From a virus (taxonomy: Duplodnaviria; Heunggongvirae; Uroviricota; Caudoviricetes), in IMG/VR virus record IMGVR_UViG_2579778666_000001: DNA of 7,189 nt. One strand, written 5' to 3'. Positions 1 through 6,000 of the stretch are shown here, piece after piece. Within the stretch, counting starts at the first letter, position 1. Each line of letters starts with the position of its first letter. The position numbers were made by a program.

Positions 1-3000
1 GCCCTGGTGTGTGGCATACGTGCCCCGGGGAAAGGATTTTTGATCGTCAATGGCGGGGAGTATTTCCAGTGCCGTGGCATCACGCCCGTCCTGCGGAACC
101 GGCAGGGCACTCACCGCATCATTCACCGCCTGCTGCAGTACATCCGGATCGTAGTCACGACCATCACGCGGAACAGGAATATGGCTTACCGCCTCCTTCA
201 CCATCTGTTCAAGCATCGGACGCACATCATCCGGGGTGATACTTTTTCCGTCCGCCGGTAGCGGAATATTTGCGACCGCATCATTCACCGCCTTCTGCAG
301 AACATCGGGATCATAGTCACGACCGTCGCGCGGAACAGGAATATGGCTTACCGCCTCCTTCACCATCTGTTCAAGCATCGGACGCACATCATCCGGGGTG
401 AGACTTTTACCGTCTGCCGGCTGCGGAATATTTGCAACCGCATCATTCACCGCCTGCTGCAGTACTTCCGGATCGTAGTCGCGACCGTCACGCGGTACCG
501 GAATGGCCCCCACCGCATCATCCAACATCGCCTGCAGAACAGAGCGAACCTCATCCAGCGTCACATGCTTCTGTAGTACCGCGGACAGGGAAGCCAGTTT
601 CTCTTCAGACTGCTGCGCCTGCGCGGCCATCTTTTCTTCAAATGTACGCTGTAAATCCGTTATCACCGCGGCGAATTCTTCGCCCAGTGCACGGATAATG
701 GACAGTTCACGTTCATTCATTTTTTCAGTATCCCCCTGAACATCGCCTTCACCACATCATGCTCTGTTTCACTGATTGCCTTATTACCGTCAGATGCGCC
801 GTCAGGCAGCTCGGCTGAAACTCTTTTCCCGGACGACGCGAACGGATCTTCACGGGCATCACGACGGGACAGCGCCTCCAGACTGTAGTTCTGCTGCTGA
901 AGATACAGTGCGTCACCTCCCGCAAGAGGCGGCAGGTTCTCCCGCTTGCGGGCCTCATTGGGCGTGAGAAGCGTATTTTTCACCGCCTCACCCAGCGTTT
1001 TCATGCGCCGTTCGCTGTCCATTCGCAACAGCGTGGTGACATCAAACTCCGTACTCTCGTTTTCCCCCGTCTCCAGCGCCTCATCCAGTAACAGTTCAAT
1101 GGACTCAATCAGCGTCTGCAGGCACTGGGAATAATACTGCTGCTCCAGCGCCTCCACGTTGTCACTGGAAGGCGGTTGTCCCACGCCAATCTTGTAGGCC
1201 GGGACACGGAACACCGAACAGACAATTTCAGCGGTCATCTTCAGTTGTTCCACCGTCTGCGCATCCACTGGTGAAAACGTCGTGGGGTTGTATTTCGCCC
1301 CGTTGCTCAGAATGGCCGTTTTTCCCGCATTTTCGCCGGTATACCCGCTGTCCCAGTTGCTCTTCAGTTTTTTCGCATTTTCTTCCGTAATACTGCCGGG
1401 GATCTCAATCACCCCGGACGGCCTGCCGCCATTTCTGAAAAAAGACGTCGAATTTTCCTGAATATGATGCCCCTGCATGGCCGCCAGCCCGGCGGCATAC
1501 ACCGGCGGCAATCCTATAAGCGGATGAAAAAAACAGTTAAACCGGTCGTGGATCACTTCCCGGGCAGGCACCGTCACCGCCTCAGTGATCCCACAGTTCC
1601 GGTCCGGCGTGATGCGGTAGAACACCTCGCCGTCATCCGCCACCAGAGGTTCAACCCGGCTCCAGTCCAGAATACGCAGTTCTTTGATCTGCCCCCGGGC
1701 ATTACGGATTTTCAGCACCACCGTATTGCCGTGACGCAGTTTGGCGTTCAGCCACAGTTCAAAAAACTGGATGCGGTTCTGCTGGGCGTTGGGACGACGA
1801 CAGAGGCGGGCAATATCCCCCCGGCGCGTTTCCCTGCGTATCCCATGCGCATCCGTCTGCATAAGACGCAGCCGCATTTTGGCGATATCCTGGGATATCA
1901 GCGAAATGCACGAAAACACCGCATGAAAGGAGAGGACACTTTCCGGATCGGTTTTCACGCCCTGCTGCCAGGCACCGGCAAAGGGCTCAGCCACCGCCTG
2001 AAACAGGCTGGTCCAGCCCGCCTCTCTTACGTCACGTCCTGATTTCTGGTTTTTTCGGGTTCGCCGTAAAAGGTTCCACATTCGCCATGCTCCGCATCAC
2101 GTTTCTTTTTCTGACCTGCCGGACGTCGCACCGTGATGTACTCCGCCTTTCCCAGGCGAACCAGCACCTCCGCACACGGCTGTGCCACATCACGGATATC
2201 CCCGACCCGGGCATCATGCGTGCCCTGCAGATATCGGATCTTTGCCATAACCTGTTACGGGAGGCGCACACCTCCCGTCCTCCTTATCAGACTCAGCCAC
2301 CGGACGCACTGCCGTAGTTCACTCCGGTGATCACCGCCACCGCCGCGGTACGGCGACGACGCCAGTTGATCCAGCGCTCCGCACGGATGGCCACGCTGCC
2401 TGTCTGGAACATGGAAACCAGCTCCACCGGCGACGGCGTGGTACTGTCGCCGGTCGGCTCAGACTGCATTTCCAGTGATGCCTCGCGGGACATATCCACT
2501 GCCACGCCGCCGTCATCCGCCAGATAAATATCCGGGGCATTCACCAGCACCAGCTGGTCACCCACGTACTGGGAGACAATCACCGGCAGCCCCTGGAAGG
2601 AGCCACCCAGCAGGGTCATGTCCGGGTATTCTTTCTGACCCAGCGCATTTTTACGCATGGACAGTGCCAGGGCATTGGTGCTGGACATCAGCCAGACCGC
2701 ACCGGTGGGCTGCAGGTTTGCTGCCACAAACTGACCAAACGCGGCCTCTGCATCCGCATCCGGGTTACCGGTTGATGCCATGCCCTTCACATCATGGGTG
2801 ATGGACGCCGGGGAGACATCTGCCACTGCGGCTTTTTTCGGGTCCACAAAGTCCGTGTCCAGACGCGCCACCACCGCTTCCGCCAGCGCATTACGGACCA
2901 GTGCATCAGCAGCCGGACTGGAAAAACGGATCAATTCTTCCGTCAGTACCGCAATGGCCGACACCTTCGCATGACTGAAGGTGATGGATTCAAAATCAAA

Positions 3001-6000
3001 CTTCGTCAGGGGTTTTGCCTTACCCTCACCCACCCAGCCGGCAGCACCGCCGGACACCTGGGCGTGCACACGGATATTGAACGGCACCTGACGAAGTGCA
3101 GGGATCCCGCCCTGACCAAATCGCCCGATAATGGTCTGGGGACGCAGGTAATCAATAAAGTCCTGTGCGTATTCCTGATATTCAGACAGGCTGCCTGCCC
3201 ACTGCGGATCCGTGGTGGTCCCCGCGCCCACTGCCGATTTCAGGACATGATGCAGACGACTGTCATCCGGATACTGACGACGGGCCACTTCCAGGGCTTC
3301 AGATCGGACGCCTTTAGCCGCAGCCAGCGATTTGGCAAAGCGGGCGAAGCCAATCCCCTTATCCAGTTTCTGCTCCACACGGATCACCGGCGCAGAAGTC
3401 ACCGCCACCACATCCCATTACCGGCCTGTTTCACCGGCTGTGCCGTGGCAGCCTTACCGGCTTCCAGCTCACGCAGACGCTTCAGGTGCGCATCCACCTG
3501 ACGGATTTCCGCTGCGGTGTTGTCGTAATGCTCTTCCTCCTCCACATCCAGCGTGCGCCCTTCCTCTGCGGCTTTGGTCATGACCTCCTCAAGGGAGGCT
3601 GCCAGCGCTGCACGCTTGTTTTCAAAACTTTTAATCTGTTCGCCAATATTCATTATGGTCTTTTCCTTATGAAAAACGGTTGTTGACTGTGCCGCAGCGC
3701 CGGCAGAAGATGCGATTTTCACCACCGGTTTCCGGTTGCCGGACGCGGCAGAAAACGGGCGGTCGTAAGATTTAATGGTCCGGATGGTGCATTCCGCATT
3801 CGCGGGCACGGTGACGGCAGACACCTCCATCAGTTCCCAGCGCAGAAAATGCAGTCCGCCTCCGTCCAGAAAGGTGTATTCATGGGGACGGAAGCCCACG
3901 GACAGCCCCCTGACCAGCCCGGTCTTAATGGCCGCCCAGGCCTCATCCAGCCGGGCAGCCAGTTGCGATGGCATATCCGGCACGGGCTTCGCCAGTGTTG
4001 CCGTGATTTCCAGCCCTTCGCTGACCCGGCGCACCGTACACTGCCCCACCGGGCGGGAATGGTCATGCTGCCAGAGAAACGGGATCGCACTGCCAAACTC
4101 CGCGCCCTCGGGCTCCAGGATGTCCCCATCCCGATCCGGAGAAGGCGTTGACGCAATCCCGGTGATCACCCGCTCATCCTCACTGAAGGATTTCACCGTC
4201 AGCAGGGAACAGGCCCGTTTAAGAGTCACATCAGCCTCCTGAAAATAAAAAAACCGCCGGAGCGGTTCATGATGGTTACAGTGTGAACAGGGTTATATGA
4301 AAAAAACCGCATATTCTTTCTTTTTTGGCTCCGGATTCAGGGACATCAGGGAGACCGCATTGAAGAGCGCCATCAGCGGGTCAATTTTTCCCCGTCCGCT
4401 GGCCTGTTTCGTGATAAGAATGGCATTACCTCTAGGCTCCACACGGGCATTACCAACACACCAGGCCATCAGGGGCTGGCCACCATGCACCAGCACCCCT
4501 TCAGCCAGTTTTCGCTCGGTGGTTTTAATGGCACCGCCCAGCTTCCAGCCCTGGCTTATCCCCACCACACTCTCATCGGGGATCCCGGCTTCCGCCAGTG
4601 AATCCAGAATCTGCCCCACGCCTGACGGGTCAATACCGATATGCTCCAGTAACTCAGCCTCATGAATACGACGCACATACTCCGCCACTTCCGCCGTGTC
4701 ATCCCCGACCCGACGGACAATGGTCATATCCCCACAGGCCACAAAATCCTGAAAACGGGATGCCTCACTCTTCCGTCTGACCACCGCGGTTTCATGTGCC
4801 CAGGCATGGCCCCAGCCCAGCCATTCGCGGGTCTCCCGGTCACGCCCAATCACATACATCCCCAGCAGATCATCCAGCCCTCCGCCGTCAATCCCCACCG
4901 TCACCACATCAGCACGCTGCAGAATATCGTCCAGGCTGACGCGCCTGCCCTGCTGCTCCCAGAAATCCGCCCCCGCCCAGCGGTCAGAACGCAGGGCAAG
5001 ACCAATTTCCACATTGGCATGTTTTGACATGAAGCCACGAAATGCTTCCTCACCAGCCTCCCGGGCTTTACGGTACTCCCGGTACAGAAAGGCCTCATCC
5101 ACTGAATAGCCGAGATTCGGATTGACCATGGCGAGGTTTTCCATCAGCAGGTGAGCCCCGCTTTCCACCATTTCAGGAGGGTGTTCAAATATCACCGGCA
5201 GAAAGTGCGGATCATGAATTTTGCCGTCGCGCACATCCCGGGCATACTGCAGTTTCTGTCTGAACACCCCGGCTGGCGGTTCATTCGACTGGGTGGTCGT
5301 ATACACCACAAACCCTTCCGGGCGGGAGGCAAGGCCGCCTATGGCTTCACGTAACATGTCCTCCGCCTTGTACTGTTTGCCAAACAGCCATAACTCATCA
5401 ATCAGCGTACCCACGGACTTGATACCGGACACCGTATTCGGATCGGCTGCCACCACCTTCAGGGTGGTGTCCGTCACCCGGTGGGTGATGGTCCGGATAT
5501 GTGTCTGCACCTGACAGAGGTCATCCAGATCATCGTCCCGTCGTACCATATCCCTGGCAGGATTGAAGGCGTTGGCTGCCACCTCCACAGTCGGGGCCAG
5601 AATCGTGTAACCCGCCGCCTGCCGCCAGTTCAGTAACAGCGCCGTCATCATGATCCCGGCGGCCAGTGTGGACTTGCTGTTTTTTTTGGGTATCAGAATG
5701 AACACTTCCTTGATATGGCGGACACCGGTCTGCGCATCGTAGGAGCCAAACAGAGCCGCCACCAGGTCAAACACCCACTGTGCACAGGACTCCCCGAACG
5801 TCGGGCTCCCCGGTGCATCCACAATCCGCAGTTGTTTAAAAATCGCCAGGGCATGTGCGGCCTGGTCCGGATAAATCGGAGCCGGAATAATCGACAGCCC
5901 CTTTTTCAGGCGCTCTGCCCAGTCCGGGCAGGCCGTGCTCCATACAGGTATCATCCGTTGCCCTCATTATCGTTATTCACCACCAGTCGTGGTGGTGGTG

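Follow-up and report, generated by a model that had tools for sequence, protein, structure and literature searches.

The DNA analysed here (the window, 7,189 nt) is an entire draft contig from E. coli 1-176-05_S4_C2; its genes are all encoded on the minus strand and run in one direction. Its packaging block begins with an HNH endonuclease gene (6805..7170; Pfam HNH, E=3.7e-8; phrog_589), which sits upstream of terS in nearly all relatives. This is followed by the genes for the terminase small subunit, terS (5951..6514; Pfam Terminase_2, E=1.3e-8; phrog_641, E=4.5e-68), and large subunit, terL (4293..5954; TerL_ATPase and TerL_nuclease; phrog_9), the latter encoding a product identical to WP_032236024.1. 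Next comes a 276-aa ORF (3399..4229) with a Peptidase_S78 match (PF04586, E=6.6e-9) that exceeds the curated cut-off. The prohead serine protease domain corresponds to residues 1-192 of what is normally a fused gene (3654..4229). It shares 29% identity with HK97 gp4, and its His55 and Ser110 are invariant in the alignment, the latter within a GxSVGF motif (GLSVGF here, GMSVGF in gp4). The rest of the ORF, residues 193-276 in the window frame (3399..3653), is a coiled-coil scaffold (delta-like) segment with a weak coiled-coil Pfam match, and ends at a premature TGA (3399-3401). The HK97-type major capsid protein body is encoded by a 372-aa ORF (2293..3411; Phage_capsid, PF05065, E=3e-14; phrog_617 positions 281-626), which owing to a 1-base deletion lies in a different frame from the protease. 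The gene-order survey revealed no separate scaffold gene in the head block.

Downstream of the capsid ORF lies a small conserved ORF of 73 aa (2027..2248; phrog_829, E=3e-39), whose homologues are placed between capsid and portal across the lineage. It gave faint matches to the N-domain of ribosomal protein L9 (E about 0.2) and, in 4 of 17 members, to DUF7210. The small ORF overlaps by 55 nt the start of a complete 454-aa portal gene (717..2081), which matches Phage_portal over its full length (PF04860, E=2.5e-81) and HK97 gp3 at 27% identity (E=5e-25). The exact portal sequence is present on 34 contigs, complete genomes among them; Serratia and Pantoea portals measure 447-449 aa. The identification of portal and protease, originally made from motifs, was thus upheld by HMM searches. 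The portal is translationally coupled to a post-portal ORF through an ATGA overlap at 717-720 (portal TGA 717-719, ATG 718-720). This last ORF runs off the start of the window (1..720 holds its 5' part), matches phrog_1289 and phrog_8767 and has no relative in Pfam or PDB. Within it, at 113-504, a 162-nt (54-aa) unit is repeated in tandem 2.4 times, and alleles differ in the number of repeats. Many E. coli alleles have one extra G, by which this ORF and the portal are fused into a single protein of 807 aa. The two-ORF form is ancestral, and the label of 'frameshifted portal' that it receives from automated pipelines points the wrong way.

The head genes therefore do not follow the canonical order terS, terL, portal, protease, capsid; the window reads terS, terL, protease-capsid, small ORF, portal, as the sequence-only reading had claimed. 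The same reading proposed a cassette rearrangement or module exchange in this element, and here the gene-order survey gave a different answer. At 93-97% identity, the window is colinear with 94 phage records and with prophages of 1241 among 5426 complete E. coli genomes (~23%), each of these genomes carrying at least 80% of it at a single place; in 91 phage records, 98-100% of it is covered at 93-96.6% identity. The order is shared by BP-4795 (ICTV genus Marienburgvirus), 2851, YYZ-2008, 1717, JLK-2012 and dozens of Stx1a/Stx2 phages, by Serratia and Pantoea prophages, and by phages PAJU2, vB_FKKS2 and Mcat6. In total, it recurs in more than 30 loci of gamma-, beta- and alpha-proteobacteria, at 32-77% protein identity, and no close relative with the canonical portal-protease-capsid order was found. 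A recent move or import of the protease-capsid pair as a cassette between terL and portal of this element might be suspected from the departure from HK97, and the hairpins that bound the pair both here and in HK97 could mark the unit of an ancient rearrangement. The colinearity of the whole 7.2-kb window with phage records and E. coli genomes, the identical order across three proteobacterial classes and a composition without a break at the boundaries make such a recent event extremely improbable. If there was a rearrangement, it took place before the lineage spread; as a recent event it is refuted. Because the order is the norm for a well-described E. coli prophage group, a rearrangement or module exchange specific to this element is unsupported. 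The head-gene order is unusual compared with HK97 but ordinary in itself, being the constant arrangement in a large group of E. coli prophages, sequenced before, and in their relatives; it was already known and did not originate in this element. What looks odd against the HK97 textbook case is standard in one of the commonest E. coli prophage types, Stx phages included, and such an order should not be flagged as a rearrangement.

Protease and capsid had also been taken for two genes, which was not borne out: in relatives they form a single 645-aa ORF, of which the window carries the two halves with one base missing. The gene measures 1938 nt in BP-4795-type records and 1937 nt in the window. 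The deletion maps to about 3413-3415, where the window reads GGTAATGG-GATGTGG and the nearest allele GGTAATGGTGATGTGG, and it splits the frame into 276 and 372 aa. We recovered 2493 homologues; among those listed, the great majority are 644-650 aa long with both S78 and Phage_capsid domains, and each of the E. coli-group phage records listed matches the full 645 aa without interruption in a single frame. A product of 276 aa was found on no other contig. The junction was matched by 1249 complete E. coli genomes, but by none of them at 99% identity or more; the closest of these matches have the extra base, and IMG/VR gave no exact match.

Could the split nevertheless be real and functional, with a protease-scaffold protein of 276 aa and a capsid protein of 372 aa, the latter translated by coupling at a GTGA overlap, like lambda C/Nu3 and E? 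The stop codon of the protease frame (TGA, 3399-3401) does overlap a GTG in the capsid frame, and with a second GTG at 3411 re-initiation would be possible. Protease-scaffold fusions also act in trans in other viruses, such as lambda C/Nu3 and herpesvirus UL26. We nonetheless consider a functional split very unlikely, as it is found on one draft contig alone while all other sequences stay in frame. Natural two-gene relatives, moreover, divide at Met193 and not at residue 276, leaving the scaffold on the capsid protein. The site also resembles a hybrid of the known alleles GGGAATG and GGTGATG, as can result when collapsed prophage copies are merged into one consensus. For the missing base we see two possible causes: an error of sequencing or of the assembly consensus where a multi-copy repeat was collapsed, or a private mutation that inactivates the gene. 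A BP-4795/2851-type block has a single 645-aa ORF and the window does not; the window reads as a damaged or mis-sequenced member of that type, not as a different kind. For annotation, this means that what looks like a 'prohead protease' of 276 aa and a capsid ORF in this contig are pieces of one gene.

The protease-capsid gene starts with a GTG (4227-4229) preceded by a Shine-Dalgarno (SD) sequence, AGGAGG (4235-4240), and this start lines up with those annotated for BP-4795 and for RefSeq genomes. A second, probable internal ribosome-binding site was recognized from sequence conservation at 3651..3668, where AAGGA (3664-3668) lies 10 nt upstream of the Met193 ATG (3651-3653), in frame with the longer product. 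In two-gene relatives (Burkholderia vB_FKKS2 and Moraxella Mcat phages), the capsid gene begins exactly at the equivalent of Met193. The coiled-coil segment that precedes the capsid body (residues 193-280) belongs to the capsid gene in these relatives, and the scaffold segment of the window aligns with the N-terminal 80-90 residues of their separate capsid proteins. Fused genes retain both Met193 and the SD-like motif. The motif is kept at the nucleotide level while amino acids change: its Gly codon is GGA in all 14 of 14 relatives, against a background of 9%. In Enterobacterales it is of no more than moderate predicted strength, with a dG of about -5.6 kcal/mol that places it among the top 4-19% of positions. 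The conservation of Met193 and its SD in fused genes suggests a nested internal start, and Met193 was probably the ancestral start of a capsid protein with an N-terminal scaffold (delta-like) domain. The 645-aa frame would then have arisen by read-through from the protease gene into the adjoining capsid gene, which may have retained its own ribosome-binding site and start after fusion. If so, the fused gene probably yields two products, a major scaffold-capsid protein and a minor protease-capsid fusion, the latter carrying the protease into the shell.

The pair was further said to be bracketed by two hairpins, and these were indeed found at 4241-4268 and 2257-2278. The upstream element (4241..4268, minus strand), in the gap between terL and protease-capsid, reads GAACCGC-UCCG-GCGGUU(U). 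Its stem (4262-4268/4251-4257) closes a UCCG loop and is followed by a U-run down to 4241 and then by the SD and GTG described above, giving the stem-loop and U-tract of an intrinsic terminator. At the same place, relatives in Serratia, Pantoea, Enterobacter, Pseudomonas, Acidovorax, Snodgrassella and Moraxella have a hairpin with U-tract whose stem differs and whose loop is often of the UNCG type. The hairpin is absent in the alpha-proteobacterial relatives examined and is thus not essential to the layout. The downstream element (2257..2285, minus strand) consists of an SD, AAGGAGG (2279-2285), and then a hairpin, ACGGGAGG-UGUGCG-CCUCCCGU (2257-2278), whose end is 8 nt upstream of the small ORF's ATG. 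Its GC-rich stem (2271-2278/2257-2264) lies just after the capsid stop codon and in E. coli is present without a U-tract. All 36 of 36 loci surveyed have a hairpin after the capsid stop (median best dG -20.5 versus -13.0 in control windows, p=1.7e-16). The SD-hairpin-ATG layout is common to the other surveyed Enterobacterales except Rouxiella and Phlomobacter, and formal covariation amounts to one event only, E. coli versus the rest. Taken alone, neither hairpin exceeds chance in the window (4 terminator-like sites versus 6.7 expected; folding z-scores of -1.2 and -2.0). We accept them as real because they are conserved across genera with different stem sequences.

The role of the hairpins was considered next to the transcription of the block. 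If they were true transcription stops, they would divide it into separately promoted units. The upstream element lacks none of the sequence marks of a strong intrinsic terminator (GC-rich stem, UNCG-type loop, at least 7 U), and in the HK97 record putative terminators are annotated as flanking gp4-gp5 and likewise the major tail gene. However, our scan found no sigma-70-like promoter on the minus strand, the coding strand, anywhere in the window. An SD and start codon follow the U-tract within 12-20 nt, and the downstream hairpin lacks a U-tract in E. coli. Furthermore, a Q antiterminator gene lies upstream of the equivalent block in a Serratia relative, and lambdoid late transcription reads through terminators. 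We therefore regard true stops as unlikely, and favour elements that act on RNA processing or stability within a single long late transcript. As elements of such a transcript, the hairpins probably shape transcript ends or stability, and it is plausible that they set the expression of capsid versus portal. The late operon would be transcribed by Q-antiterminated polymerase, with the hairpins most likely acting on the RNA. They may define or protect 3' ends, such that the capsid message would outlast that of portal and terminase. In the lysogen, they could also block read-through by polymerase that is not antiterminated. A strong SD and the small ORF's AUG stand on either side of the downstream stem, the folding of which would bring the two to 8 nt apart.

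Our main reading, to which we give a probability of roughly 85%, is that the window is the packaging/head block of a BP-4795/2851-type lambdoid E. coli prophage, in which gene order is the fixed synteny of an old lineage, the normal 645-aa protease-scaffold-capsid frame is broken by one missing base, and two conserved RNA hairpins flank the capsid unit. The series HNH-terS-terL-[protease-scaffold-capsid]-small ORF-portal-post-portal ORF represents the fixed synteny of an HK97-related siphophage lineage that has spread through proteobacteria. As putative terminators bracket gp4-gp5 in HK97 and the hairpins are conserved, the hairpin-bounded capsid cassette is fairly described as an old shared unit, and its place on either side of the portal as an ancient lineage difference. 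A bolder proposal, which we put forward tentatively and with some doubt, is that the protease-capsid unit is a conserved self-contained expression cassette common to HK97 and this lineage despite their opposite orders. A terminator-like upstream stem, a nested Met193 start and a downstream stem that protects the message and bridges SD and AUG might together set the roughly 400:12 capsid-to-portal ratio post-transcriptionally, with two products from one frame and the fusion delivering protease into the shell. For the question of how the ratios of structural proteins are tuned in phages, the conserved putative internal start and the SD-hairpin-AUG elements offer modest leads.

Several features of the window have counterparts in known systems. 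In lambda C/Nu3, an in-frame internal start gives a shorter product of the same frame; the nested start proposed here is a candidate drawn from sequence conservation alone. T4 genes 38 and 25 have a stable stem between SD and AUG that shortens the effective spacing, and T7 has a strong stem, the T-phi terminator, directly after its major capsid gene. The predicted downstream stem of the window resembles both in position; the E. coli stem has no U-tract. Gifsy-2 reportedly also combines protease, scaffold-like and capsid parts in one frame, and is said to do so with a ClpP-type protease and lambda-like partners, not S78. Its 'tripartite capsid gene' (Effantin et al. 2010, Virology 402:355) is cited as such in PMC8538268. 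The HK97 head module (gp1-gp5) is built from the same families as the window, with an HK97-type portal, an S78 protease and a Phage_capsid coat with an N-terminal scaffold segment. It also has a hairpin and U-tract upstream of protease-capsid and the SD-hairpin-AUG arrangement downstream, after gp5. In HK97, however, the portal precedes protease and capsid, these are separate genes, and there is neither a small ORF before the portal nor a post-portal ORF; the capsid proteins of HK97 and the window are too diverged for detection by BLASTP. Pseudomonas phage PAJU2, Burkholderia phage vB_FKKS2 and the Moraxella Mcat phages (36-48% identity to the fusion protein) have the order of the window and a hairpin after the capsid gene. 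Protease and capsid are fused in PAJU2 as in E. coli (annotated 'prohead protease fused capsid protein') and separate in vB_FKKS2 and the Mcat phages. Closest are BP-4795, 2851, YYZ-2008, 1717, JLK-2012 and the matching E. coli prophages, which are like the window in gene order, intergenic hairpins and small ORF. BP-4795 likewise has portal and post-portal as two genes with an ATGA overlap, while the protease-capsid gene is unbroken in BP-4795-type records and broken in the window.

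All long ORFs of the window lie on the minus strand, and their products were identified by Pfam and PHROGs searches. Read along that strand, they encode an HNH endonuclease (6805-7170; Pfam HNH), terS (5951-6514; Terminase_2), terL (4293-5954; TerL_ATPase and TerL_nuclease), a 276-aa ORF that is the protease part (3399-4229; Peptidase_S78, E=6.6e-9), a 372-aa capsid ORF (2293-3411; Phage_capsid, E=3e-14), a small ORF of 73 aa (2027-2248), a complete 454-aa portal (717-2081; Phage_portal, E=2.5e-81) and a post-portal ORF that starts at 720 and continues beyond the window. These searches bore out every gene identity proposed in the sequence-only reading, and with them the order that it described: terL, protease, capsid, small ORF, portal. 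The 276-aa and terL proteins have exact GenBank matches, KDA87172.1 and KDA87173.1, from Escherichia coli 1-176-05_S4_C2; the contig that carries them is 7189 nt long, and the window is therefore a complete draft contig. No long ORF is present in the 290 nt between the HNH and terS genes (6515-6804, for which one phage record annotates a 43-aa 'putative DNase' at the equivalent place), and this interval could hold a cos or packaging site.

In HK97 the portal precedes the protease and capsid, and the order seen here had been read as a sign of local rearrangement or module exchange. This was not supported: a well-described phage group has this order as its standard layout, an outcome that the sequence-only reading had itself named as refuting. 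The window matched 94 phage records over its full length at 93-96.6% identity, among them BP-4795 (ICTV Marienburgvirus), 2851, YYZ-2008 and many Stx1a-, Stx2a- and Stx2c-converting phages, and the annotated relative records share its gene order. Prophage matches were found in 1287 of 5426 complete E. coli genomes, with a median of five places per genome having any match; in 1241 of the 1287, at least 80% of the window was covered in one place. Serratia and Pantoea prophages (about 75% protein identity) carry HNH, terS, terL, a single protease-scaffold-capsid fusion gene, portal, a 300-348-aa ORF and connector. Further away, Pseudomonas phage PAJU2, Burkholderia phage vB_FKKS2 and Moraxella phage Mcat6 show terS, terL, protease/capsid, small ORF and portal, and the PAJU2 annotation reads 'prohead protease fused capsid protein'. 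A scan with one genome per species gave 35 loci from gamma-, beta- and alpha-proteobacteria and one Prevotella MAG, and the portal lay downstream of the protease-capsid gene in every locus that had enough flank and a detected portal homologue. Among the loci compared, tight synteny was broken only in L027 (Pseudorhodoferax; about 4 kb inserted between capsid and portal, 6483-10509) and L038 (the Prevotella MAG; about 1.3 kb inserted between protease and capsid, 3184-4519). Our literature search for this order or for protease-capsid fusions returned indirect mentions only, and the original BP-4795 paper was outside its reach. The head-gene organisation of O157 Sakai prophages Sp6, Sp9, Sp10 and Sp12 has been described as 'slightly different' from that of lambda (Asadulghani et al. 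2009, PMC2669165), and these prophages probably belong to the same group as the head module of the window.

The protease and capsid ORFs of the window are two halves of one gene. At the equivalent of 2293-4229, BP-4795, RefSeq E. coli genomes and phage vB_EcoS-705R7 have a single 1938-nt ORF encoding 645 aa, and phrog_617 covers both halves. At E<=1e-10 this fusion has 2493 homologues. Of the 120 listed, the vast majority measure 644-650 aa and carry the two Pfam domains, and they represent many Enterobacterales genera. Whole-window alignment revealed that one base is missing at about 3412 (3413-3415, minus strand): the nearest natural allele, from strain S1-KEN-03-A, has GGTAATGGTGATGTGG where the window has GGTAATGG-GATGTGG. 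Four results show that only this contig carries the deletion. Of the 1249 complete genomes matching the junction, not one reaches 99% identity (the closest matches have the extra base); in all the listed E. coli-group phage records, the match to the 645-aa query is full-length and in a single frame; an exact-pattern search of IMG/VR for the deleted junction gave no match; and the 276-aa product occurs in this contig only. The repeat family to which the contig belongs has several copies in each genome, and the deletion site resembles a hybrid of the known alleles GGGAATG and GGTGATG. A consensus artefact from collapsed prophage copies is therefore no less and no more likely than a genuine private mutation. 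Either way, the window represents a very common type of prophage head module, in a copy that is slightly damaged or mis-sequenced.

Separate protease and capsid genes are found in Burkholderia vB_FKKS2, Moraxella Mcat phages and the Sphingopyxis, Acidovorax, Snodgrassella, Brucella and Prevotella loci. In these two-gene relatives the start of the capsid gene aligns exactly with Met193 of the E. coli fusion (MNIGEQIKSFE...), so that the coiled-coil scaffold segment remains on the capsid protein, as in HK97. Met193 is kept in the fused genes, with a Shine-Dalgarno (SD)-like motif upstream of it both in the window (AAGGA 3664-3668, ATG 3651-3653, minus strand) and at the same position in L005-L045. 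Pseudomonas-type and alpha-proteobacterial sequences have GAGGAGGG or AAGGAGGG as this motif, and its dG of -11 to -12 kcal/mol places it among the top 0.3-0.6% of the gene's positions. Enterobacterales have AAAGGAAA or AAGGAAAAG, whose dG of about -5.6 kcal/mol falls within the top 4-19%. The nucleotide motif is constant though the encoded residues vary (KGK, KEK, EEG, KEG), and the Gly codon inside it is GGA in 14/14 non-E. coli Enterobacterales, which are non-independent sequences, against 9% GGA elsewhere in the same genes. This pattern suggests that the protease gene lost its stop codon, which created the fusion, while the capsid gene retained its own start, and that the fused gene probably yields both the 645-aa product and a 453-aa scaffold-capsid product from a nested in-frame start.

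Two hairpins flank the protease-capsid unit. The upstream one, GAACCGC-UCCG-GCGGUU followed by a U-run (4241-4268, minus strand), precedes AGGAGG by 1 nt and the GTG start codon of the protease by 12 nt. A hairpin with a U-tract occupies the same place between terL and the protease SD in all Enterobacterales, Pseudomonas, Acidovorax, Candidimonas, Snodgrassella and Moraxella loci, with differing stems and loops often of the UNCG type, and is absent at the alpha-proteobacterial loci. The downstream hairpin, ACGGGAGG-UGUGCG-CCUCCCGU (2257-2278, minus strand), begins 14 nt past the capsid stop. Neither is remarkable alone: their folding z-scores are -1.2 and -2.0, the window contains four terminator-like sites compared with 6.7 in shuffles, and an Rfam scan of the window at a permissive threshold gave no match. 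What makes them significant is the comparison with relatives. A GC-rich hairpin follows the capsid stop codon in 36/36 loci, with unrelated stem sequences and a median best energy of -20.5 kcal/mol compared with -13.0 kcal/mol for random windows of the same loci. It was better than all 12 own-locus controls in 26 of the 36 loci (Mann-Whitney p=1.7e-16 against controls, for loci that are phylogenetically non-independent). A formal count of covariation of this second hairpin within Enterobacterales gave one compensatory event, E. coli versus the rest. This is weak alone, and we therefore relied on the non-homologous stems found at the same site in the 36 loci, set against control windows.

The downstream hairpin lies in the leader of the small ORF (2246-2285, minus strand), between a strong SD (2279-2285) and the ATG (2246-2248). 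The linear distance between these is 30 nt, and folding of the stem would bring them to 8 nt. A strong SD, an immediate stable hairpin, 7-10 nt and the next AUG recur after the capsid gene in Enterobacterales relatives, and the arrangement resembles that of T4 genes 38 and 25. We rejected the GTG at 2269-2271 behind the same SD (79-aa ORF) as the real start, since a start codon at this distance is missing from other genera. In lambdoid phages, late transcription produces a single long RNA under Q antitermination and ignores intrinsic terminators. A Q gene lies upstream of the equivalent block in the Serratia relative, and no promoter-like site was found on the coding strand of the window. The hairpins probably act mainly on RNA, as 3'-end barriers that would make the capsid segment longer-lived than the terminase and portal segments, and the upstream one may also block non-antiterminated read-through in lysogens. 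A role as regulatory RNA elements is plausible and has comparative support.

The small-ORF family is kept between capsid and portal across the lineage, from Moraxella to alpha-proteobacteria, and combines a conserved N-terminal domain, about 40 aa long, with a basic tail. In E. coli its usual stop codon at the portal start has been lost, giving a 55-nt extension into the portal gene. Pfam found DUF7210 in 4/17 members with weak similarity, and a PDB profile search gave only E values of about 0.1-0.2 (best a response regulator, also the ribosomal protein L9 N-domain). At the other end of the portal gene (717-735, minus strand; around 3715-3735 in the comparison locus L002), the window, BP-4795 and nearly all genera have an ATGA in which the portal stop and the start of the following ORF overlap, and the two-ORF state is therefore ancestral. 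One extra G in a G-run creates an 807-aa 'portal' fusion in many E. coli genomes, and the NCBI pipeline labels the ancestral two-ORF form 'frameshifted' in strain S1-KEN-03-A. A programmed -1 frameshift at the portal stop (CUG AAA AAA UGA) was rejected: the A-run is not conserved in other genera while ATGA is, and simple translational coupling is therefore the better reading. The post-portal ORF contains a 162-nt (54-aa) tandem repeat (113-504, minus strand; 2.4 copies, 90% identity), and the BP-4795 product exceeds the matching part of the VL7S7 protein by 108 aa, or two repeat units. Searches with this ORF gave only spurious repeat-driven matches in Pfam and only designed helical repeats in PDB, with no relatives of known function recognised; its PHROGs label 'portal protein' is contagion from the fused alleles.

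Finally, we compared the module with that of HK97. Identity is 27% between the portals and 29% between the proteases, and divergence of the capsids is too great for BLASTP to detect a match; the split between the two gene orders is therefore ancient. Two putative terminators are annotated around the protease-capsid pair in the HK97 record, one at 3309-3335, immediately ahead of protease gp4, and one at 5192-5213, directly behind capsid gp5, and another such pair surrounds the major tail gene. In HK97, SD-hairpin-AUG arrangements come after the capsid gene (5186-5221) and also after the major tail gene (7438-7474), their stems being annotated as putative terminators only. After gp5 the sequence reads UGA-U-GGAGG-GGGCGGG-GAAA-CCCGCCC-UUUUAACGU-AUG, and the Serratia relative has the same layout, AAGGAGG-GCGGGG-GAAA-CCCCGC-CGUUUUGC-AUG; the window shares this layout with a different stem. 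A hairpin-bounded protease-capsid unit is thus common to both gene orders, which differ in the side of the unit on which the portal lies.
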